A DNA stretch of 26,305 nt from Bacteriovoracaceae bacterium (GCA_049599895.1 JBMYPC010000031.1:1-26305); one strand, 5' to 3'. Shown: positions 1-15,324, numbered from the stretch's first letter. Program-made: numbers and translations. The notes: generated by a model not told the origin, from the sequence alone.

Positions 1-1262
1 AAACTCCCTTAGAACTAAAGAATGACGATATTTGGGTTATTGGACCAACATCAAAAATGGCAGATTATCCAGAATATAAAGACTGCTATATCCCGACAAT
101 TTATGAGCAATTGGTTGATGATTGTCACGATGGGGCCAGAATTTTATTTGATGATGGAAACCTCTCTGCAACAGCGATTGAAAGAGACCGCCATGTTTAC
201 AAGATAAAAGTGACTGTGGGTGGGTCCCTAAAGTCGAATAAAGGAATTAACCTTCCTGATTGTGATGTTTCGGCACCTGCTTTTACAGAAAAAGACCGTG
301 AAGACCTGCTTTTTGCTCTTGAACAAAATATCGACTTCGTGGCCCTTTCTTTTGTACGAAGAAAAGATGACATCCTTCATGTTAAAAAACTTCTTCATCA
401 ATTTAAGCTTCACATTCCAATTGTTTCAAAGATCGAAAAGCCTCAGGCGATTGATAATTTGGAAGAGATTCTTTCCATCACTGATATGATTATGGTGGCC
501 AGAGGTGATATGGGTGTTGAAGTTGGAAATCATCTCGTTCCTTCAATGCAAAAGAAGATTATTGAAGCTTGTAATGAAAAAAATATTCCTGTCATCACCG
601 CCACTCAAATGCTTGAATCGATGACCAATGCTCCTGTTCCGACAAGAGCTGAGGCCAGTGATGTCGCCAATGCTGTTTGGGATGGAACTGATGCCGTAAT
701 GCTAAGTGGAGAGACTTCAGTTGGAAAGTATCCTGTGGAAACTGTGACTTTTATGAGCAATATTGTCGCTGAGGCAGAGAAATCTCCAAAAGAAAGACCT
801 CTTCTTAGAAATATTGACCTTTCATCAGTGAATGCTTCCGTCATGGTTGCTGCTTCAATGATTGCAGAGAAAGTTGAAGCAGAGTTTATCCTTGCCGTTA
901 CTCAAAGTGGGCATTCATGCCAAAAGGTAGCAGCCTTTAGACCTAAAACTCCTGTTCTTGGGATTACGAATAATTTAGAGACAGCGAGAAGAATGACTCT
1001 TTATTGGGGAGTGAAGCCTTTTCATCTTACAGACTTTGATGAAGATGATTATGACTTTCAAGAGGACGTGATCAATCTTGTTAAAAAAGATTTTTCTCTA
1101 AGTAACGGAGCAAAGCTTGTGATTACCAGAGGGGATGGGGCCTTCTTTGCAAAAGGAAGCTCAAACTCAGTAAAGGTTGAGATTATCAAGGATCAGCCCA
1201 AAGTTTTAGGCAGCTCTGACGTCGTTGAAGAAGTTTCTGATAAAAAAAAAGAGTTCAATTAG
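1..1262 (+). CDS. pyk: Pyruvate kinase (5' end outside window); probably continues by -1 shift into a ferredoxin-like domain ending at 1450
   Basis: Motifs KGINLP, SKIE, MVARGDMGVE, ITATQMLESM, PTRAEASDVANAVWDGTDAVMLSGETSVGKYP. The frame is open from position 3 (TPLELKNDDIWVIGPTSKM), so the true start lies upstream of the window. Confidence 0.97.
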   Translation, partial: TPLELKNDDIWVIGPTSKMADYPEYKDCYIPTIYEQLVDDCHDGARILFDDGNLSATAIERDRHVYKIKVTVGGSLKSNKGINLPDCDVSAPAFTEKDREDLLFALEQNIDFVALSFVRRKDDILHVKKLLHQFKLHIPIVSKIEKPQAIDNLEEILSITDMIMVARGDMGVEVGNHLVPSMQKKIIEACNEKNIPVITATQMLESMTNAPVPTRAEASDVANAVWDGTDAVMLSGETSVGKYPVETVTFMSNIVAEAEKSPKERPLLRNIDLSSVNASVMVAASMIAEKVEAEFILAVTQSGHSCQKVAAFRPKTPVLGITNNLETARRMTLYWGVKPFHLTDFDEDDYDFQEDVINLVKKDFSLSNGAKLVITRGDGAFFAKGSSNSVKVEIIKDQPKVLGSSDVVEEVSDKKKEFN

Positions 1263-1450
1263 ACATTAGCGTCTGTGCCGGCTGTCAAAACTGTGTTTCT
1301 GTTTGCCCACATGATATTTGGGCGACATCACAAGATGAAAAATATCGAACAATAATTGTTGCAGAGAATGTTTCCAAATGCCAGATGGACATGGAGTGCA
1401 TGGAAGTCTGTCCGACTGGAGCAATTGAAATCATTCCAAACTTTGGTTGA
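1250..1450 (+). CDS. 4Fe-4S dicluster ferredoxin-like domain in the -1 frame relative to pyk, with no start codon of its own
   Basis: Manual translation from 1250: RVQLDISVCAGCQNCVSVCPHDIWATSQDEKYRTIIVAENVSKCQMDMECMEVCPTGAIEIIPNFG* (CxxCxxCxxxCP and CxxDxxCxxxCP). In-frame TAA at 1241-1243, A9 run at 1242-1250, TGA at 1448-1450. Confidence 0.88.
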   Translation, partial: RVQLDISVCAGCQNCVSVCPHDIWATSQDEKYRTIIVAENVSKCQMDMECMEVCPTGAIEIIPNFG

Positions 1451-1453
1451 TGT

Positions 1454-2467
1454 ATGCAGGTTTTCTCACCAGAACTTCTTCAAAATCTTGGTATTGTTGA
1501 TTGGGGAGGAACTCATCGTGAGAGACCAGAGAGCTTTGATCACTTTTCAAATTGGGTCGATAAGGGACTTCATAACCCGCTCCATTATTTAGGGGATCAT
1601 CGAAAAGAGCTTCGCTCAAACCTAAAAAATGTTTTTCCCGAATATCAAACAGCACTAGTTTTTCTTTTTTCTTATGCCAAAACCACAAAAGAGTTTTCTG
1701 ATTTTTATGAAAGCGATGAAAGTAACGGGCTTCGAATGGCCTCATATGTTTTAGGCTTTGAAGGATTGGATTATCATATTGTTCTTCTAGAGAAATTAGA
1801 AAGACTAAAAAAAGAGCTTTTAAAAAGTTATCCTCAAGCAAAAATTATTCACAGTCTTGATATTCAGCCTATCCTTGAAAGAGACCTTGCCTATAGCTCT
1901 GGGCTTGGGTGGTTCGGCAAAAACTCCATGCTTATCAACCAAAAGCATGGCTCTTATTTTATTATTGGCTCTCTTTTGATTGACCAAAAAATCGATTACC
2001 CTGAGAAGCAAATTGAAATTGATCATTGCGGTAGTTGTACAAAGTGTATCGACTTCTGTCCTACTGATGCCATAGACCCAGAAGCTAGGACCCTCATTTC
2101 AGAGAAATGTATCAGTACTTACACTATTGAAGTTTTTAAACCTGAAAGAATGGATCCGCCTTCTAAGATGGAAGAGTCGAGAGGGGAAATTTATGGCTGT
2201 GACATTTGCCAGGATGTCTGTCCATGGAATCAAAAAGTTTTTAAATCCATGGAGATGGAGAGTCATTTTCTTTCAGAGAAGCTCAGTGAGAATACAAAAC
2301 TTCTTTTTGAGTTTTTTCTTTCAAGACCTAAAGAGGAAGTGATTGCAGAGCTTAAAAGCATGTCTAATAAAGCTTTTGAGAAAAAGTTTAAACAAACTCC
2401 TCTTGCCAGAACTCGAAGAGTAGGGGTTTTAAAGAATTTAGAGTTTTGGCAGAACTTAGAGTCCTAA
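1454..2467 (+). CDS. queG: tRNA epoxyqueuosine(34) reductase QueG
   Basis: Motifs DYH, ILERDLAYSSGLGWFGKN, CGSCTKCIDFCPTDAI, KCISTYTIE, GCDICQDVCPWN. Confidence 0.93.
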   Translation: MQVFSPELLQNLGIVDWGGTHRERPESFDHFSNWVDKGLHNPLHYLGDHRKELRSNLKNVFPEYQTALVFLFSYAKTTKEFSDFYESDESNGLRMASYVLGFEGLDYHIVLLEKLERLKKELLKSYPQAKIIHSLDIQPILERDLAYSSGLGWFGKNSMLINQKHGSYFIIGSLLIDQKIDYPEKQIEIDHCGSCTKCIDFCPTDAIDPEARTLISEKCISTYTIEVFKPERMDPPSKMEESRGEIYGCDICQDVCPWNQKVFKSMEMESHFLSEKLSENTKLLFEFFLSRPKEEVIAELKSMSNKAFEKKFKQTPLARTRRVGVLKNLEFWQNLES

Positions 2468-3250
2468 ATCTTTAATATGCTTTTTGATATGAGCTGCCGC
2501 GAGCTCAGGTTGATGATGGGGAAGCTTTCGTGGCTTCTCCAAAATGACTTCATTACCCTGTGATTCAAGTAACTCTTTTAAAAGATCAGCACCTTCTTTT
2601 CCAACCACAGTGTCATCTTCTCCACAGATCAAACTGACTTTTTGATTTGAAAGCTTAAGGGTGTTTTTCTCTTCTTTAATCCAACTAAAAACACTTTGAC
2701 TATCAAGGGCAGGGGAAACAAGTTGCTCTCGAACTAAGAGGGTGGACTTATAAAATGGAGTATCAAAGATATGAAGCTTTCCTTTGGGAGGCATACCAAG
2801 ACCCACAGCAAGACTTCTGGTTTTGAGCTCTTGAAACTCCTGAAGTTCAAGGGCCTTAAGACTAAGAAGACCGCCAAGACTATGCCCACCTAAGACCCAG
2901 GTGGTTGTTTCAGAATCGATTTTTTCATCAAGAGCTGAGCTTAGGTTTTCTTTCGCTTTCACAAACATCTTATGAGCATTTTGCTTAAAAGCGTCAAAGT
3001 CTGTGACTTCATTAAAGCTACCAAGGTAATGACCCGGCAGGTCAAGAACAAGACTTGGTCTTCCTTCTTCGGCTAGGCGAATAGCCCAGTTGAGTAGCGC
3101 CCCTTTGTGAGAAGTGTAGCCATGGGCCCATAAATAGACTGAGGGAAGTGACGAAACCTCGTCTAGAAGCTCCTCTGAGGGAAGAATGAGAAAAGCTTCT
3201 GTTTTCCAGTCATTGAGTTCAAGGTAAGTCTTTTGAATTTTTGTCGACAT
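2456..3250 (-). CDS. Alpha/beta-fold hydrolase
   Basis: HGY oxyanion motif, DLPGH, nucleophile elbow GHSLGG, acid GEDD, C-terminal His (LPHH). Confidence 0.85.
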   Translation of the reverse strand: MSTKIQKTYLELNDWKTEAFLILPSEELLDEVSSLPSVYLWAHGYTSHKGALLNWAIRLAEEGRPSLVLDLPGHYLGSFNEVTDFDAFKQNAHKMFVKAKENLSSALDEKIDSETTTWVLGGHSLGGLLSLKALELQEFQELKTRSLAVGLGMPPKGKLHIFDTPFYKSTLLVREQLVSPALDSQSVFSWIKEEKNTLKLSNQKVSLICGEDDTVVGKEGADLLKELLESQGNEVILEKPRKLPHHQPELAAAHIKKHIKDLGL

Positions 3251-3368
3251 AGTGTTTCCTAAAACAGAATTTTAACCAAAGAAATTTAATTTGAAGAGCA
3301 ATAAATTCGAGTTTTTAAATTGACGATGTCACCAAATTTCCTTAATTTATAAAACTCATTTTAGATGT

Positions 3369-3444
3369 GCCCTGATAGCTCAGTTGGTAGAGCAAAGGAC
3401 TGAAAATCCTTGTGTCGGTGGTTCGAGTCCGCCTCGGGGCACCA
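3369..3444 (+). tRNA. tRNA-Phe (GAA)
   Basis: 76 nt cloverleaf: acceptor stem GCCCTGA/TCGGGGC, D arm AGCTCAGTTGGTAGAGC, anticodon loop CTGAAAA, T loop GTTCGAG, encoded CCA. Confidence 0.98.
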
Positions 3445-6451: not shown

Positions 6452-6985
6452 ATGATTATTTATTTAAACGGCACTTCAAGTTCAGGTAAGACAACTGTTG
6501 CTAAACTAATTCAAGAGGAGTTTGAAGGAAGTTATTTTTATTTTTCAATCGACAGCTTACTCTATTCACTGCCTGAAAAAACATTAAAAAGTATTGAATC
6601 TGGAGGAGATCTTGCGAAACAATTAGATTGGCAAGGTATCTTTGCTTCCTATTTTGAGTGTCTCATGGCCTTAAGTCGAAATGGACAAAATGTTATTGGA
6701 GACTGTCCGATCTACTCCCAAAAACAGTTTGATTGCTTTAAAGAAAGTATTGGCGAAATAAAAGAAATCGTAAGAGTTGGTATTGATTGTCCTTTAGAGA
6801 TTCTTAATCAAAGAGAGAAAGATAGGGGTGACCGAGCAATTGGTCTTGCTGCTTCACAAGCTGAAACGATTCATCAGTTTTTACCATATGACTTGAAAGT
6901 TGATTCCTCAGAGATGAACCCACAAGAAATAGTTGATAAAATTAAAGTTCGTAGTCAATGTTTTAGGTGGCGAACTTTTGTTTAG
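6452..6985 (+). CDS. Chloramphenicol phosphotransferase (CPT)-like P-loop kinase
   Basis: IIYLNGTSSSGKTT Walker A, CPLEILNQREKDRGDR, YDLKVDSS. Confidence 0.8.
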   Translation: MIIYLNGTSSSGKTTVAKLIQEEFEGSYFYFSIDSLLYSLPEKTLKSIESGGDLAKQLDWQGIFASYFECLMALSRNGQNVIGDCPIYSQKQFDCFKESIGEIKEIVRVGIDCPLEILNQREKDRGDRAIGLAASQAETIHQFLPYDLKVDSSEMNPQEIVDKIKVRSQCFRWRTFV

Positions 6986-7154: not shown

Positions 7155-7727
7155 ATGGCCATTGAATTACCGGCTCTTCCCTGGGCACAGGATGCACTTG
7201 AACCACACATTTCAGCTGAAACAATTGGTTTTCATTATGGAAAGCATCACAATGCATACGCAACAAAATTAAATGCAGCAATTGAAGGAACTCCAAACGC
7301 TGAAAAGACTCTTGAAGAGATCATCATGAACTCTGAAGGTGGGCTTTTTAATAATGCTGCTCAAGTTTGGAACCACACTTTTTACTGGAACTGCTTAGCT
7401 CCAAATGCTGGTGGCGAAGCAACGGGACAGATTGCTGAAAAAATCAACGCGAAGTGGGGAAGCTTTGATAAGTTCAAAGAAGATTTCACAAACGCAGCAG
7501 CAACAAACTTTGGTTCTGCGTGGACTTGGCTTGTTGACAATAACGGTGAGCTTGAAATTTTCAACACTTCAAATGCAGACACTCCAATGAAGCATGGAAG
7601 AAAAGCTCTTATGACAATCGACGTATGGGAACACGCTTATTATGTTGATTATAGAAATGCGAGACCTGATTACATCAAGGCCTTCTGGAATCTTGTAAAT
7701 TGGGATTTCGTGAATTCAAACTTATAA
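7155..7727 (+). CDS. sodB: Fe superoxide dismutase
   Basis: HYGKHH, FNNAAQVWNHTFYW (AAQ is Fe-type), FGSAW, DVWEHAYY. Confidence 0.96.
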   Translation: MAIELPALPWAQDALEPHISAETIGFHYGKHHNAYATKLNAAIEGTPNAEKTLEEIIMNSEGGLFNNAAQVWNHTFYWNCLAPNAGGEATGQIAEKINAKWGSFDKFKEDFTNAAATNFGSAWTWLVDNNGELEIFNTSNADTPMKHGRKALMTIDVWEHAYYVDYRNARPDYIKAFWNLVNWDFVNSNL

Positions 7728-8038: not shown

Positions 8039-8362
8039 GTGATTCAGAAGTATCATGAAGAAGAAGAGTTCACTCAGGGCCTCTTGTCGAACATTGATTT
8101 GAACGATTCTGAGTTTATTGATTGTGCCTTTAAAAAAATTGATTTTACCAACCTTTCTTTTGAGAGTTCAAAGTTTATTGAAGAGGGATTTGATCTTGAA
8201 AAGAGTGTCGTTCTCGCTGAGTCTATTGTGAAGCCTCCTAAATATAATCCAAATCTTCTCGAGGAGCTTGATCGAGCTGTAGAGGAGAATGACCGCACAA
8301 GTATTGAATTAAAAAGTTACTTTAAAGACACATTCATGATCGACCTTGATCAGAAGTCTTAA
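8039..8362 (+). pseudogene. Chimeric or truncated ORF: pentapeptide-repeat N-terminus joined to an unrelated C-terminus
   Basis: SD GAGGAG and GTG start; IDLND SEFID CAFKK IDFTN LSFES SKFIE repeats stop abruptly near 8180. Confidence 0.5.
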
Positions 8363-9699
8363 ACGTCATCAATCAGGGCTTTTGCTATCTGATCTTTTAA
8401 AAGCTCTTTATTCTTGTCGTTTAAGAATGATGAATCAATAAACTTTAAGAGCTTTGGAGTATAGCGTTTAAACTTTTTTAAAGAATTTTCGATCATCTTT
8501 TGCTCCAGACCCATATTCTTTCCAAACTCAAGCCAATCATTTTTAGAGATTTTATTTTTCTTTGCATTCAGAGCAAGAGCCGTTTGTTCTTTATCTTCTG
8601 GAAAAAGTATTTTAGTGGAAAGAAGGTCATAGCATGGGGAAAGCATATAAGTCTTATTCTTTAAATTTTGAACAAGTGAGAAGTTTTTGAGATGCATATC
8701 TGCATTTCCAATTAAAAAACTGTAATAGTTCAAATCAAAAAATTGGAGTAGGTAGGGAAGTGTCGGAGAACAATAGTTCTTTATAACTTTAGAAGCCTTT
8801 TCAAGAGAGCTTCGATATTTATCCTCAGTTTGTTTTTCCATTAGCTGACAGAAATCTTCTTGATAGAATTTCTTTTGACCATTTCGATCAAAGCGTTTCA
8901 CCAAATAGGCTAATTGACCATCCTTTAAGGGAATGAGGGCACAATCGGGAACAGGGAGACCGACGAGCTTGGCCATCTTCATGCAAAGGTGCTCGATTTC
9001 TGGCATTTGAGGATAATCAGGACTTGGTGGTTTTAAAATAAAGTTTCCATCAAAGTTTACGATGGTGAATCGTTTCGATTCTGAATGTTCATCGAGATGA
9101 AGAGAAAGCTTTTTTTGAACACCCGTCACTGAAAGTCTTTGATTGACCTTTATTTTTGCCAAGTTTTCAATGTCCTTAAGGGTGATATCGAGCATTGGGT
9201 AGTTTGTTGCTGATTGGAACATTTTTTTGACTTCGTTTGGATGATAGAGGTCTTCTTCATTTTCGAGTTGCCGATAACTGATAAGGCATTTTCCATAACC
9301 TTTAATTTGAGAACTCTCTTCCTTGGAAACTTTTTCTAAAGCTTCATGGACATTGGAGTCTTTTTGAAATGTCTGCCCTTCGGCAAGTATATGAGTCGCA
9401 CCTATTGGATCAGCGCAGACACTCATTAATAATCCCATTCTGTCTTTTGTATTGAGCTTCCAATTTTTAACAGCGTGGTCTAATAACCAGCCTTCAGGAA
9501 TTAATCCATCAAAAAATGAAAAAAGCTTTTCACTTTGATAGGGAGTCTCTCGTGGAGGAAGAGTGAGGCTAATTCCTTGTTTGGGATTTGTTTTTAAAAA
9601 GCTTTGAAGATAAAAGAATGTGTATTCGCCTTCGGCATTTTCTTCTAGCTTTCCGACAAGTTGATCATAAAGGTAAATGTCAGCAGTTTTTTTTGTCAT
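8359..9699 (-). CDS. hipA: HipA-family Ser/Thr kinase toxin (HipA N-terminal/HipS-like domain plus HipA_C/HipT-like kinase)
   Basis: ISLTLP, FFDGLIPEGW, P-loop SVTGVQKKLSL, FILKP, LVKRFDR, QEDFCQ, GNADMHLKNFS, LSPCYDLL. Confidence 0.92.
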   Translation of the reverse strand: MTKKTADIYLYDQLVGKLEENAEGEYTFFYLQSFLKTNPKQGISLTLPPRETPYQSEKLFSFFDGLIPEGWLLDHAVKNWKLNTKDRMGLLMSVCADPIGATHILAEGQTFQKDSNVHEALEKVSKEESSQIKGYGKCLISYRQLENEEDLYHPNEVKKMFQSATNYPMLDITLKDIENLAKIKVNQRLSVTGVQKKLSLHLDEHSESKRFTIVNFDGNFILKPPSPDYPQMPEIEHLCMKMAKLVGLPVPDCALIPLKDGQLAYLVKRFDRNGQKKFYQEDFCQLMEKQTEDKYRSSLEKASKVIKNYCSPTLPYLLQFFDLNYYSFLIGNADMHLKNFSLVQNLKNKTYMLSPCYDLLSTKILFPEDKEQTALALNAKKNKISKNDWLEFGKNMGLEQKMIENSLKKFKRYTPKLLKFIDSSFLNDKNKELLKDQIAKALIDDV

Positions 9700-12566: not shown

Positions 12567-14846
12567 ATGAAGTTAAATAAAGAAAATTGGAAAAACATAA
12601 TTGATGAGCACTTTAAACAAGAAGGTCTGCTCCCAATTAAAATTAAGACAGAACTTGAGACGAACAGAAAAGAGAAAGTTCGCCTTTATGCTTTTACTGA
12701 TTTTAACTCAGATCTTGAGAGCAAAAAAACTTGGCTCGTTTTAGGAAGTCATAACCTCTACGCATTTAAGATCGAAGGGGAAAACTTTATAATCGAAACA
12801 TGTTTGTCTCTCGAAAAGGTTGTAAGAATCAGGTCTTCAAGAGGATTGAGCTGTCACGAGCTGAGAGTCTATGTATCTGATGATATGCCTAGTGCTCTTG
12901 AGCTTTTCTATTCATCAAGACAAAAGGCAATGATGGATCAAATGATTTTTTGTTTAGAACAAATAACAAAGAATCAAAGTTATGATCTTCTCGTTGACCC
13001 TGATGAACAGTATCAGATGAACATTTTAAGACCTCTTCTAGAAGTTAGTTCTGAAGTTGGAACAAAAGATAAGGACACTCTTTGGCGACTTCTCGAGTAC
13101 TTACTTCCATATAAAAGGGAATTGGTACTTGGTTCGATTGGAGCAATAACTGGTACAGCAGTATCGTTATTACCTCCTTATCTGTCAGGCTATGCCATCG
13201 ATAAGATTGTGCGTCCTTTTCAAGATGGGACATTAAGTTTTGATGAGGCCCGTTCTATGGCCTGGCTTGTTTTTGCGGGGCTGGGACTGAGCTATGTTGT
13301 AAAGGAAGTCTTCATCTGGCTCCGTTTAAAGAAAATGGCCGTTCTTGGTGAGAAGGTCGCCTTTGATTTAAGGGGGCAGTTGTATGAGCATTTGCAATCT
13401 CTTGATGTTGAGTTTTTTGGGAAAAAACCTACAGGCTCTTTAATATCAAGAGTGAGTTCTGATACAGATCGAATTTGGGACTTTATCGCATTTGGTGTTG
13501 TTGAGGTATCGATTGCGATTGTGACTTTATTAGGTCTTTCAGGAGTTCTCCTTCTGATGGATTTTCAGCTAGGTCTTATCATGATCTTGCCAGTGCCACT
13601 TCTTCTTTTAAGCATTTATTTTCATGGTGAGAAAATGAAAAAAATGTTTCTGGGCGCTTGGGGAAAATGGTCGAAACTCACTGAACTTCTATCGGATACG
13701 ATACCAGGAATTCAAGTTGTGAAGGCCTTTGGTCAAGAAGCTCATGAAGTAAAAAGATTCCGAAGGAGAAATAAAGCTGCAGTGGAAGGATTTAATGAGA
13801 TCCACAAAAAATGGACCTCATTTTGGCCACGGCTCATGATGGGAATCCATTTTACGGTTTTAACTGTTTGGATTTTTGCAATCCCTCGGCTCGTTTCAAG
13901 TGGAGCAGAAGACACAATTAGTGCGGGAACATTCGTTTCGTTCCTCCTCTATATGACTATGTTTTCAGCACCTATTGAAGTGATCGGTCAAGTTGCAAGA
14001 ATGTTGAATAGAGCTTTAAGCAGTGCTCATCGTATTTTTGAAATTTTAGATGCAAAACCTAAAATTACAACTTCAAAGAGAGCGAAAAAACTTAATGTTT
14101 CTGGGGCTGTAGAGTTTAAAAAGGTTCGCTTTAGTTATGACGGTGTTCGTCCAATACTAAAAGGAGTAAGCTTTAAAATCTCACCAGGTGAAATGATTGG
14201 GCTTGTAGGGCCAAGTGGTGGAGGTAAGTCCACAATCACAAAACTCATTAATCGATTTTACGATATTGATGATGGGCAAGTGATTATCGATGGCGTGCCA
14301 TTAAAAGAACTTGATCTTACTTACTTTAGAAAACAAGTGGCGATGGTTTTGCAGGATCCCTATCTTTTTCATGGAAGCATTTGGGAGAATATCGCCTATG
14401 GACAGGAGAACGTGGATAAATTTGCTGTCATTGAAGCTGCGAAAGTTGCCAATGCTCATGATTTTATAATGGCACTTCCTCAAGGTTACGAAACAGTTGT
14501 AGGAGAAAGAGGCCATACTTTATCAGGAGGAGAAAGACAGAGAATTTCCATTGCAAGAGCAGTTCTTCAAAATCCAAAGATTTTGATCTTGGATGAAGCG
14601 ACAAGTGCACTTGACTCTGAGACAGAAGAAAAAATCCAAGAGGCGCTTGATCGACTTTCTAAAGGAAGAACTGTGATTGCAATTGCTCATCGATTAAGTA
14701 CTTTGAGACAAGCCGATAGAATCTTTGTGATTGAAAAAGGTGAACTTAAAGAGGAGGGATCTCATCAAGAACTTTTAGAAGTTCATGAGGGGATTTATAA
14801 AAAGCTTTACGATGTTCAGATGAAAATGAGTAAAAGCTTTGTTTGA
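12567..14846 (+). CDS. ABC exporter (TMD+NBD, MsbA-like) with ~170 aa N-terminal extension, DUF1854-associated type
   Basis: Several TM helices, Walker A GPSGGGKST, LSGGERQR, ILILDEATSALD, IAHRLST. Confidence 0.93.
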   Translation: MKLNKENWKNIIDEHFKQEGLLPIKIKTELETNRKEKVRLYAFTDFNSDLESKKTWLVLGSHNLYAFKIEGENFIIETCLSLEKVVRIRSSRGLSCHELRVYVSDDMPSALELFYSSRQKAMMDQMIFCLEQITKNQSYDLLVDPDEQYQMNILRPLLEVSSEVGTKDKDTLWRLLEYLLPYKRELVLGSIGAITGTAVSLLPPYLSGYAIDKIVRPFQDGTLSFDEARSMAWLVFAGLGLSYVVKEVFIWLRLKKMAVLGEKVAFDLRGQLYEHLQSLDVEFFGKKPTGSLISRVSSDTDRIWDFIAFGVVEVSIAIVTLLGLSGVLLLMDFQLGLIMILPVPLLLLSIYFHGEKMKKMFLGAWGKWSKLTELLSDTIPGIQVVKAFGQEAHEVKRFRRRNKAAVEGFNEIHKKWTSFWPRLMMGIHFTVLTVWIFAIPRLVSSGAEDTISAGTFVSFLLYMTMFSAPIEVIGQVARMLNRALSSAHRIFEILDAKPKITTSKRAKKLNVSGAVEFKKVRFSYDGVRPILKGVSFKISPGEMIGLVGPSGGGKSTITKLINRFYDIDDGQVIIDGVPLKELDLTYFRKQVAMVLQDPYLFHGSIWENIAYGQENVDKFAVIEAAKVANAHDFIMALPQGYETVVGERGHTLSGGERQRISIARAVLQNPKILILDEATSALDSETEEKIQEALDRLSKGRTVIAIAHRLSTLRQADRIFVIEKGELKEEGSHQELLEVHEGIYKKLYDVQMKMSKSFV

Positions 14847-14862
14847 TAAAAGTGAGGTGCAT

Positions 14863-15324
14863 ATGAATGCAGAAGATAAAATTTTAAAGCTCAAAAGTGA
14901 TCCTTCTGGAAGACTGCTGATTGATGGGGAAACTTTAGAGGTTGCCCCATGTTTTCCTTGGGAAGATCCTTATAAGTTTCTTTCTTTGCGTAATGATGAA
15001 GGAAAAGAGGTCATTCTTATTCGAGATATTAAAGATGTTAATCAAGAACTTTACTCTTTAATTCAAAAAGAGCTTGAGAGACGCAACTTTGTTTTTCGAA
15101 TCAAGAGGATTGATGAAATTGAAGATGGACATGAAGTTCGTGAATATCATGTCTCGACAGAGCAGGGACTGAGAACGATTATGACGGAGCAGGAGGATTG
15201 GCCATCTGAACTTGAAGATGGATCATTCCTTATTAAAGATTTAAGTGGTGACTACTACAGAATTCCATCTTTAGATGAGTTAGATTCGAGTTCAAAGAAA
15301 AAGATTCTTCCTTATATAGGGTAG
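14863..15324 (+). CDS. DUF1854-family protein
   Basis: SD GAGGTG before ATG 14863; CFPWEDPYKFLSL, ELERRNFVFRIKRI, HVSTEQG, IKDLSGDYYRIPSLDELDSSS; usual position after this ABC type. Confidence 0.8.
   Translation: MNAEDKILKLKSDPSGRLLIDGETLEVAPCFPWEDPYKFLSLRNDEGKEVILIRDIKDVNQELYSLIQKELERRNFVFRIKRIDEIEDGHEVREYHVSTEQGLRTIMTEQEDWPSELEDGSFLIKDLSGDYYRIPSLDELDSSSKKKILPYIG

Follow-up and report, generated by a model that had tools for sequence, protein, structure and literature searches.

Introduction

In the dnaX gene of Thermus thermophilus, a run of nine adenines (A9) lies at a domain boundary within a single gene, where RNA polymerase slips and inserts extra A's, each further A being found in fewer transcripts; stop codons lying close by in both non-zero frames produce the short gamma form alongside the long product (PMC1088944, PMC5009743). 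In two-ORF dnaX genes (ORF, open reading frame) the DNA is one base short at an A10 run and the longer product needs a -1 frameshift (Antonov et al., 2013, PMC3711429), and in the poly(A) rescues of Buchnera and Blochmannia and in Shigella mxiE an out-of-frame downstream part is kept functional by polymerase slippage (PMC5009743, PMC1088944). Insertions predominate at A/T runs (PMC5574713), and addition of a single A is the commonest slip (PMC5009743, PMC5574713). At the protein level, some pyruvate kinases (PKs) carry after the C domain an extension of about 110 residues, similar to phosphoenolpyruvate (PEP)-utilizer domains and lacking iron-sulfur (Fe-S) motifs, which brings them to about 560–590 aa and has been lost patchily (PMC12428139). 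The analysis presented here concerns the pyruvate kinase gene (pyk) at the start of a 26,305-nucleotide stretch of DNA from a Bacteriovoracaceae bacterium (GCA_049599895.1 JBMYPC010000031.1:1-26305; the whole stretch is referred to as the window), in which pyk meets an out-of-phase ferredoxin-like frame at an A9 run.

The layout of Thermus dnaX is shared by the pyk alleles of relatives that have an in-frame A9 or A10, and the features of a dnaX-type system are found at pyk: a run of at least nine A's at the boundary, avoidance of such runs elsewhere, retention of the run within certain lineages, double stops, and, in three relatives, purifying selection on the out-of-frame part. Unlike in Thermus dnaX, the host gene encodes a metabolic enzyme, slippage would make an Fe-S domain optional, run and stops together occur in about a fifth of alleles, and the layout is known from sequence alone. 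The alleles of the window and of four relatives (loci L005, L147, L251, and L253) are in the state of two-ORF dnaX, although in another gene and with one-short and Thermus-type states within single genera. As in the Buchnera, Blochmannia, and mxiE cases, an out-of-frame downstream part appears to be kept functional; unlike Buchnera and Blochmannia, the pyk hosts are free-living predators in which A9 runs are avoided elsewhere, and because in-frame alleles also retain the run and both stops, the short product appears to be wanted rather than to be tolerated damage. As in the PEP-utilizer-type PKs, a domain is added after the C domain, but here it is a 65-aa Fer4 dicluster domain, and the pyk tail matches only Fer4-type families and no PEP-utilizer type.

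The comparisons reported below make it probable that programmed transcriptional slippage at a selected A9 yields PK with and without the Fe-S domain. The transcriptional nature of the slip and the synthesis of both proteins are inferred.

The pyk-ferredoxin junction

The window is contig C31 of a 3.27 Mb genome (G000) that is 97% complete. The features of the locus are as follows.

3..1262, + strand: 3' part of pyk, encoding the PK barrel and C domain (Pfam PK, expect value (E) 2e-84; PK_C, E 6e-22)
1242..1250, + strand: A9 run at the PK/ferredoxin junction, putative RNA polymerase slippage site
1244..1450, + strand: ferredoxin-like C-terminal domain of 68 codons, in the -1 frame to pyk and with no start of its own
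1260..1262, + strand: TAG ending the unslipped PK, made from TTA GAC (Leu-Asp) of the ferredoxin frame
1267..1269, + strand: TAG closing the third frame, made from ATT AGC of the ferredoxin frame
1274..1309, + strand: first cluster motif, CxxCxxCxxxCP (residues 11–22, with Cys11, 14, 17, and 21), invariant in the alignment
1379..1414, + strand: second cluster motif, CxxDxxCxxxCP (residues 46–57, with Cys46, Asp49, Cys52, and Cys56)
1454..2467, + strand: queG, epoxyqueuosine reductase (TIGR00276, E 9e-56, 189 bits, under the cut-off of 200)

An earlier note on this stretch had described the A9 run, an out-of-phase ferredoxin frame closed upstream by a TAA at the run and lacking any common start codon before its first Cys motif, an A_AAA_AAA heptamer, and an Asp in place of the second Cys of the second motif, and all of these are read here. 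GAT (1239–1241) is followed by A9 and then by GAG TTC AAT TAG, so that the unslipped product ends three Lys and three further residues beyond the linker. The ferredoxin frame is opened by TAA at 1241–1243, and ahead of its first Cys motif there is no ATG, GTG, or TTG, only an ATT at 1265; adding one A joins pyk to the domain. The heptamer stands in the zero frame at 1244–1250. The domain scores above the Pfam cut-offs for Fer4, Fer4_6, Fer4_7, Fer4_9, and Fer4_10 (best E 4e-11), and its frame ends four bases from the start of queG. As judged from this layout, the ferredoxin-like domain would reach the protein level only when joined to PK, in a product of about 560 aa. The run is one base shorter than the in-frame A10 of loci L021, L068, L074, and L120. 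As a candidate internal Shine-Dalgarno sequence upstream of the shift site, inspection by eye gave only a GAAGAAG, which consists of Glu-Glu codons.

The gene begins off contig C31, with about 80 codons missing, and residues 1–62 are found at the end of contig C113. The catalytic motifs KIEK, ARGD, and TATQMLESM are present in the window. The sequence DLQGPKIR does not vary among 24 relatives; in G000 its position lies within the contig gap. Residues L113, Q114, and K117 are a signature of K+-independent pyruvate kinases (PMC8835810), and by the sequence DLQGPKIR the PK of the family fits that class.

According to the proposed mechanism, RNA polymerase would add untemplated A's at the junction run. 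Unslipped mRNA would then encode a complete canonical PK of about 500 aa, mRNA with one extra A the fusion of ~560 aa, and mRNA with two extra A's or one fewer a PK with a five-residue tail, ended by the TAG at 1267–1269. Three states of the family may be distinguished on this basis: alleles with no run would give the fusion only; alleles with an in-frame A9 or A10 would give the fusion by default and the short form through slippage, as in Thermus dnaX; and alleles one base short, including that of the window, would give the short form by default and the fusion through slippage. The predominance of the +1 A slip would account for the finding that every shifted allele is one base short.

A stand-alone ferredoxin gene was considered and rejected. 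Initiation at the ATT at 1265 would truncate the conserved first strand, this ATT is not conserved in the other shifted alleles, and no promoter-like site directed into the frame is present within 1000–1273.

Fusion of pyruvate kinase and ferredoxin across the family

In a first sample of 36 same-family genomes the ferredoxin domain is matched in 26, of which 25 have it in the pyk frame and one (G019, locus L005) has it shifted; the in-frame fusions are 555–581 aa long, apart from one of 446 aa at a contig edge. The same domain fused in frame in 25 of 26 matched relatives indicates that the site in the window is not due to chance. Extended to 237 same-family genomes, the domain is matched in 189, and the fused PK-ferredoxin is the norm in Bacteriovoracaceae. 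A protein search gave 468 matches among 611 candidates, and all 120 among the matches listed contain PK and Fer4; those with names are annotated as pyruvate kinase of Bacteriovorax, Halobacteriovorax, Bacteriovoracaceae, or Bdellovibrio, the exception being a product without a name that is filed under an alga. Relative P0003 scores 512 bits against the TIGR01064 cut-off of 306, and the AlphaFold model of the L007 product (mean predicted local distance difference test score, pLDDT, 86.6) shows an ordinary PK, which matches solved PKs at E 1e-54, and beyond it a ferredoxin-type domain with a fold of its own. The best solved-structure matches of the ferredoxin domain are distant, to polyferredoxin and complex subunits.

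Among 165 genomes outside the family, four (G320, G343, G351, and G397; loci L362–L365) from two other families of the phylum carry the same fusion with the Asp motif; these have no A run, and queG is not matched within their 3.4–3.5 kb loci. A pyk without ferredoxin stands directly before queG in four genomes (L341 in G025, L342 in G012, L343 in G030, and L345 in G036), which suggests that the domain was lost, or never gained, in some genera. With the query used, no pyk match was obtained in G065, G099, G100, G123, G034, or G008 (66–99% complete), which does not imply absence of the gene. No ortholog with a free-standing ferredoxin gene, which the earlier note had regarded as evidence against a fusion, is seen among the loci of relatives.

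Frame census and shifted alleles

Loci from the searches (L001–L027, L031–L148, and L251–L340; 235 in all) were pooled, with L028–L030 and L149–L190 omitted as weak and non-orthologous, and removal of 6 loci off the motif pattern and 54 duplicates left 175 distinct loci. The fusion proposed in the earlier note is in frame in 168 of them; five are one base short, and two, at contig edges, are undecided. Because in-frame copies rank higher in locus retrieval, shifted alleles may be under-counted. In a ferredoxin-only search, for which 150 of 189 places are listed, open frames of less than 200 aa were examined and proved to be shifted in G076 and G134 and to lie at contig edges in G213 and G217; 31 further genomes were added to the census, with G097 and G204 left unassigned.

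The five shifted alleles are those of the window (A9), L005, L147, and L251 (A11), and L253 (A10). Each is one base short and has at least nine A's, and together they represent three lineages; no allele among the 175 is one base too long. At the protein level, 10 of 166 fetched proteins lack the Cys motif. The product of the window, that of L253 (P0129), and P0130, P0137, P0138, P0173, and P0174, the last five known as protein sequences, end just after the lysines, whereas two of the others are without the linker and one terminates inside the domain.

The out-of-frame A11 is shared by L005, L147, and L251, whose PK parts are separated by 0.55–0.95 synonymous substitutions per site (dS). Over 58 codons of ferredoxin, the three pairs differ by 19 synonymous versus 7 non-synonymous changes, 13.5 versus 7.5, and 6 versus 0, giving ratios of non-synonymous to synonymous rates (dN/dS) of 0.05, 0.10, and 0, and on these substitution patterns the out-of-frame ferredoxin is judged to be under purifying selection in the three relatives. 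Since in-frame sisters have A10 and neither these three alleles nor L253 has fewer A's, these four shifted alleles are not run-shortening errors. In the window, all eight ligand positions of the ferredoxin are intact, and the domain is 62–64% identical to that of the nearest proteins at 79–83% PK identity, a value towards the lower end of those shown by in-frame pairs.

Selection on the A run and its flanking stops

Long A runs are avoided in the ORFs of G000 and its relatives and enriched at the pyk junction. Of the 567 Lys-Lys-Lys cases in G000, 13 are written with AAA throughout, against the 29% calculated from codon frequencies, as are 0/57, 0/26, 0/56, 3/64, 0/21, and 0/32 cases (3/256 in total) in stretches of 100–400 kb from six relatives, four of which carry A9–A11 at the pyk junction. 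At that junction, 25 of 53 in-frame Lys-Lys-Lys alleles are all-AAA. Run lengths at the 175 loci are at most 7 in 137, 8 in one, 9 in seven, 10 in 27, and 11 in three. The 37 run-bearing alleles (at least nine A's) fall into 11 groups on a FastTree phylogeny of 166 rows, from which 9 short or undecided rows were left out. In one clade of seven members, all seven have at least 10 A's, one of them through a different codon arrangement, although their pairwise proportions of synonymous differences (pS) are 0.55–0.83, mostly 0.6–0.8, and other conserved Lys columns are all-AAA in only 7 of 25 cases. From these comparisons the junction run looks to be under selection.

Stops in the alternative frames accompany the run. 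Counted from just past the run, both non-fusion frames are closed within 5 codons in 34 of the 37 run-bearing alleles (29 of the 32 in-frame ones) versus 9 of 136 other alleles and 5 of 54 of those with a Lys-Lys linker. Synonymous resampling with the codon usage of each gene predicts 7.3 of 37, and resampling of controls agrees with expectation (12.0 expected, 9 seen, n = 129). At the level of lineages, 10 of 11 are closed versus 1.8 expected (P about 8e-9). Ahead of the Asp codon CTA and TTA are swapped while the TAG is retained, as seen in 34 of the 37 run-bearing alleles. The two stops of the window have a resampling chance of 0.06. Among phylogenetically independent pairs (starred branches), 6.7 agree with this association and 0.0 run counter to it (median p 0.016, range 0.008–0.125).

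Alternative explanations

Several points weigh against programmed slippage or limit its reach. Its support is comparative sequence evidence only. For the lineage of the window no close DNA relative is at hand (best 73% aa), and the three database proteins nearest to it (79–83% PK identity) are in frame; as its A9 is exactly one A short of the common A10, it may reflect loss in the recent past or a bias of sequencing that is shared. At least one further frame break at a long A run is found in the same genome, since a 345-aa ORF without Pfam match at G000:C120:989-2300 (L367) ends just past an A10 run and coding apparently continues in the -1 frame. The single-frame tests on independent pairs do not reach significance (median p 0.125 each); in the lineage of L038, L039, and L113 (A9, CAA AAA AAA A) only the -1 frame is closed; and both frames are closed within 7 codons at 5 of 23 long A runs in the ORFs of G000. 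The 11 run-bearing lineages possibly inherited the cassette from one ancestor, so that 11 is an upper count of origins. Finally, a long run is absent from 136 of 173 alleles, so that most of the family can do without the short form. The earlier note had taken in-frame orthologs without a run as a refutation of slippage, which proves too simple; the 37 run-bearing alleles are clearly selected while most orthologs are run-free, so that slippage would be lineage-specific. Of the choice that the note had left between homopolymer error and slippage, the latter has strong comparative support, whereas pure error leaves the sister genomes and the stop codons unexplained. Elsewhere in G000, an apparent frame change at an A8 run lies within a membrane-protein gene near position 2979 of contig C186.

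The alternative that survives best, though it is unlikely, is that the cassette is real but the true or very recent allele of the window is an in-frame A10, the A9 being a one-base loss or homopolymer error; the fusion would then be the default product and slippage would make the short form. The same sequence context with an in-frame A10 in L021, L068, L074, and L120, the in-frame nearest proteins, and the further A10 break on C120 fit this explanation. A separate assembly speaks against it: the Logan contig of sequencing run X1 also has A9 and is gapless against the window over 1–3403, at a depth of about 9. X1 is the only run holding DNA of the window (the site lies outside the coverage of runs X2 and X3), contigs lose rare variants, and X1 may be the source sample of the genome itself, so that a quirk of the assembler is excluded but a read bias shared by both is not. 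A scan of G000 found 11 in-frame and no shifted A9 runs, but it was insensitive, missing the site in the window and flagging chiefly gene boundaries, and is given little weight. The one-short state is moreover fixed in other lineages. The comparative evidence thus supports the slippery site in the window well, while its default product, short or long, is less sure.

Considerably less probable is -1 ribosomal frameshifting on A_AAA_AAA, by which the ribosome rather than the polymerase would join the frames. In its favour, pyk has the heptamer in frame and all five one-short alleles would be restored by a -1 shift; a single tRNA-Lys(UUU) is present among the 29 tRNAs found in G000, and ribosomal and polymerase mechanisms can be interchangeable (PMC3711429). 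Ribosomal frameshifting leaves unexplained, however, the selection in in-frame alleles for a TAG in the +1 frame (34 seen, 14.1 expected), and the stronger A_AAA_AAG is present in only 7 of 168 in-frame alleles. No conserved downstream structure was found: the mean z is -0.73 for run-bearing and -1.09 for other alleles, with z below -2 in 6 of 37 versus 37 of 136, and z for the window is +0.8. Run lengths also cluster at 9–11, with one A8, near the hybrid length of 9–10 bp.

Ranked marginally lower still is phase variation at the DNA level, in which replication slippage would toggle cells between PK-only and PK-ferredoxin. A runs are hypermutable, stops in both off-frames fit this explanation as well, and one 90% protein cluster contains both a 497-aa and a 559-aa form (P0130 and P0172). 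These two proteins differ also in the residue before the lysines, so that more than run length has changed between them. Among kin, moreover, with the population represented by contigs, run length varies little (A10 in 27 of 37, in frame in 32 of 37), three diverged sisters share A11, and one-too-long alleles are absent from the 175 loci.

That the run is incidental to Lys codons in an AT-rich genome, with shifted alleles as ferredoxin-loss mutations on the way to the ferredoxin-less pyk that stands beside queG in G012, G025, G030, and G036, is highly improbable and largely refuted for the relatives, for although the domain of the window is slightly more diverged (62–64% at 79–83% PK identity) than in some in-frame pairs, A9 is avoided genome-wide yet enriched at the pyk junction, the stops pair with the run, and the out-of-frame domains have dN/dS of 0.05–0.10, with all eight ligand positions kept in the window.

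Possible role of the iron-sulfur domain

The second ligand of the second motif is Asp in all 175 loci and in 159 of 159 fetched proteins, so that the domain has seven Cys and an invariant Asp, in contrast to the eight Cys of a 2[4Fe-4S] ferredoxin. In the usual dicluster topology, Cys11, 14, 17, and 56 would bind one cluster, and Cys46, Asp49, Cys52, and Cys21 would bind the other. Asp replaces the second Cys also in Desulfovibrio africanus ferredoxin III and Pyrococcus furiosus ferredoxin. In these ferredoxins a stable [4Fe-4S] cluster stands beside a reactive [3Fe-4S]/[4Fe-4S] one, which can take up metals or ligands (PMC13111528). Such 7Fe/8Fe ferredoxins are free electron carriers of anaerobes, unlike the pyk domain, which is part of a kinase and has its Asp in the second motif. 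Least certain, at about even odds, is the proposal that the domain holds one all-Cys [4Fe-4S] cluster and one Asp-ligated, labile 3Fe/4Fe cluster through which the kinase would respond, in its activity or its stability, to iron, oxygen, or redox state; the proportion of fused subunits in the tetramer would then be fixed by slippage.

The neighbouring queG is directly downstream in 138 of 144 loci and is likely, from this arrangement, to be in the same operon as pyk. The domain nevertheless tracks pyk rather than queG, as indicated by the four genomes with ferredoxin-less pyk-queG by six loci with the fusion but without adjacent queG, and by the fusions of the two other families, whose loci show no queG match over 3.4–3.5 kb. 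For this reason, ferredoxin as a dedicated partner of QueG is disfavoured. POR_N is not found in G000 (97% complete), and channelling to pyruvate:ferredoxin oxidoreductase is likewise disfavoured. These two considerations make a regulatory sensor on the kinase the preferred candidate role of the predicted Fe-S domain.

A less favoured but credible possibility, which concerns function alone, is that the domain is a passenger and not a regulator, serving either to carry electrons to QueG or some other Fe-S enzyme or to stabilise the tetramer. QueG needs electrons, and its gene adjoins in nearly all loci. An unrelated C-terminal extension stabilises the tetramer of Thermoplasma PK (PMC12428139). 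The carrier role is countered by the same observations that separate the domain from queG, namely the persistence of pyk-queG without ferredoxin and of the fusion without queG, in the two other families with no queG match in the loci covered, and by the lack of a POR_N match in G000.

Other slippage candidates and neighbouring genes

The dnaX gene of G000 (C63:13637-15202, - strand; L355, L368) has 522 codons and an A9 at codon 353; the other frames are closed 1 and 2 codons later. In dnaX of G009 (A9) and G003 (A10), a run is likewise present with both other frames closed near codon 353–372, while dnaX of G015 and G019 is without this design; loci L351 and L352 were also examined. Production of tau and gamma by dnaX slippage is therefore likely in part of the family, as far as gene layout can indicate. 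A dsbD-like gene of G000 (C1:8066-10210, - strand; L366; 715 aa) carries at codon 294 an A10, in frame, where the N-terminal part meets the membrane domain; the other frames are closed 1 and 3 codons later. It is a second slippage candidate, in which the slip would release a soluble N-terminal fragment.

Downstream in the window, a tRNA-Phe gene (3369–3444) is followed, to 9962, by small ORFs and a gene for a helix-turn-helix (HTH) protein; the segment 3369–9962 is possibly an island at tRNA-Phe. Within it are a chloramphenicol-phosphotransferase-like gene (6452–6985, match under the cut-off), an Fe-superoxide dismutase gene (7155–7727), and a HipA-family gene (8359–9699). At 12567–15324 an ABC transporter and a DUF1854 protein are encoded, with cyanophycin-associated matches to NF052233 and NF052234, both below the cut-off.

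Implications

No description of a PK-ferredoxin fusion or of a slip in pyk was found in the literature searched, which did not extend to subscription journals. The main text of PMC12428139 has no mention of ferredoxin, iron-sulfur, Bdellovibrio, or Bacteriovora, and neither pyruvate nor ferredoxin is found in the text searched of PMC5009743 or in the main text of PMC3711429, the supplement of which may list a pyk cluster. By these comparisons, the locus would represent a known recoding mechanism in a new host gene, combined with an apparently undescribed Fe-S pyruvate kinase architecture. Few well-supported cases of productive transcriptional slippage are known in stable, non-mobile bacterial genes, the sources cited above naming dnaX, Shigella mxiE, and the endosymbiont rescues; the pyk case concerns an enzyme at the core of glycolysis and has three distinct signals of selection behind it. 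The Fe-S-domain PK sits in hundreds of database proteins that are labelled only "pyruvate kinase". Both claims are open to experiment, since members such as Bacteriovorax stolpii and Halobacteriovorax sp. HLS are in culture.

For the biology of these predators, a wider interpretation is offered tentatively and is more doubtful than slippage itself: slippage would set the ratio of two PK subunits, one of which bears an Asp-ligated Fe-S sensor, and through mixed tetramers the last glycolytic step would respond, during predation, to iron, oxygen, or redox state, while three stages of the recoding signal are kept in one family. The family shows the signal arising and flipping, from a state in which slippage would yield the short form to one in which it would yield the long form, and natural alleles make the origin of recoding testable in it.

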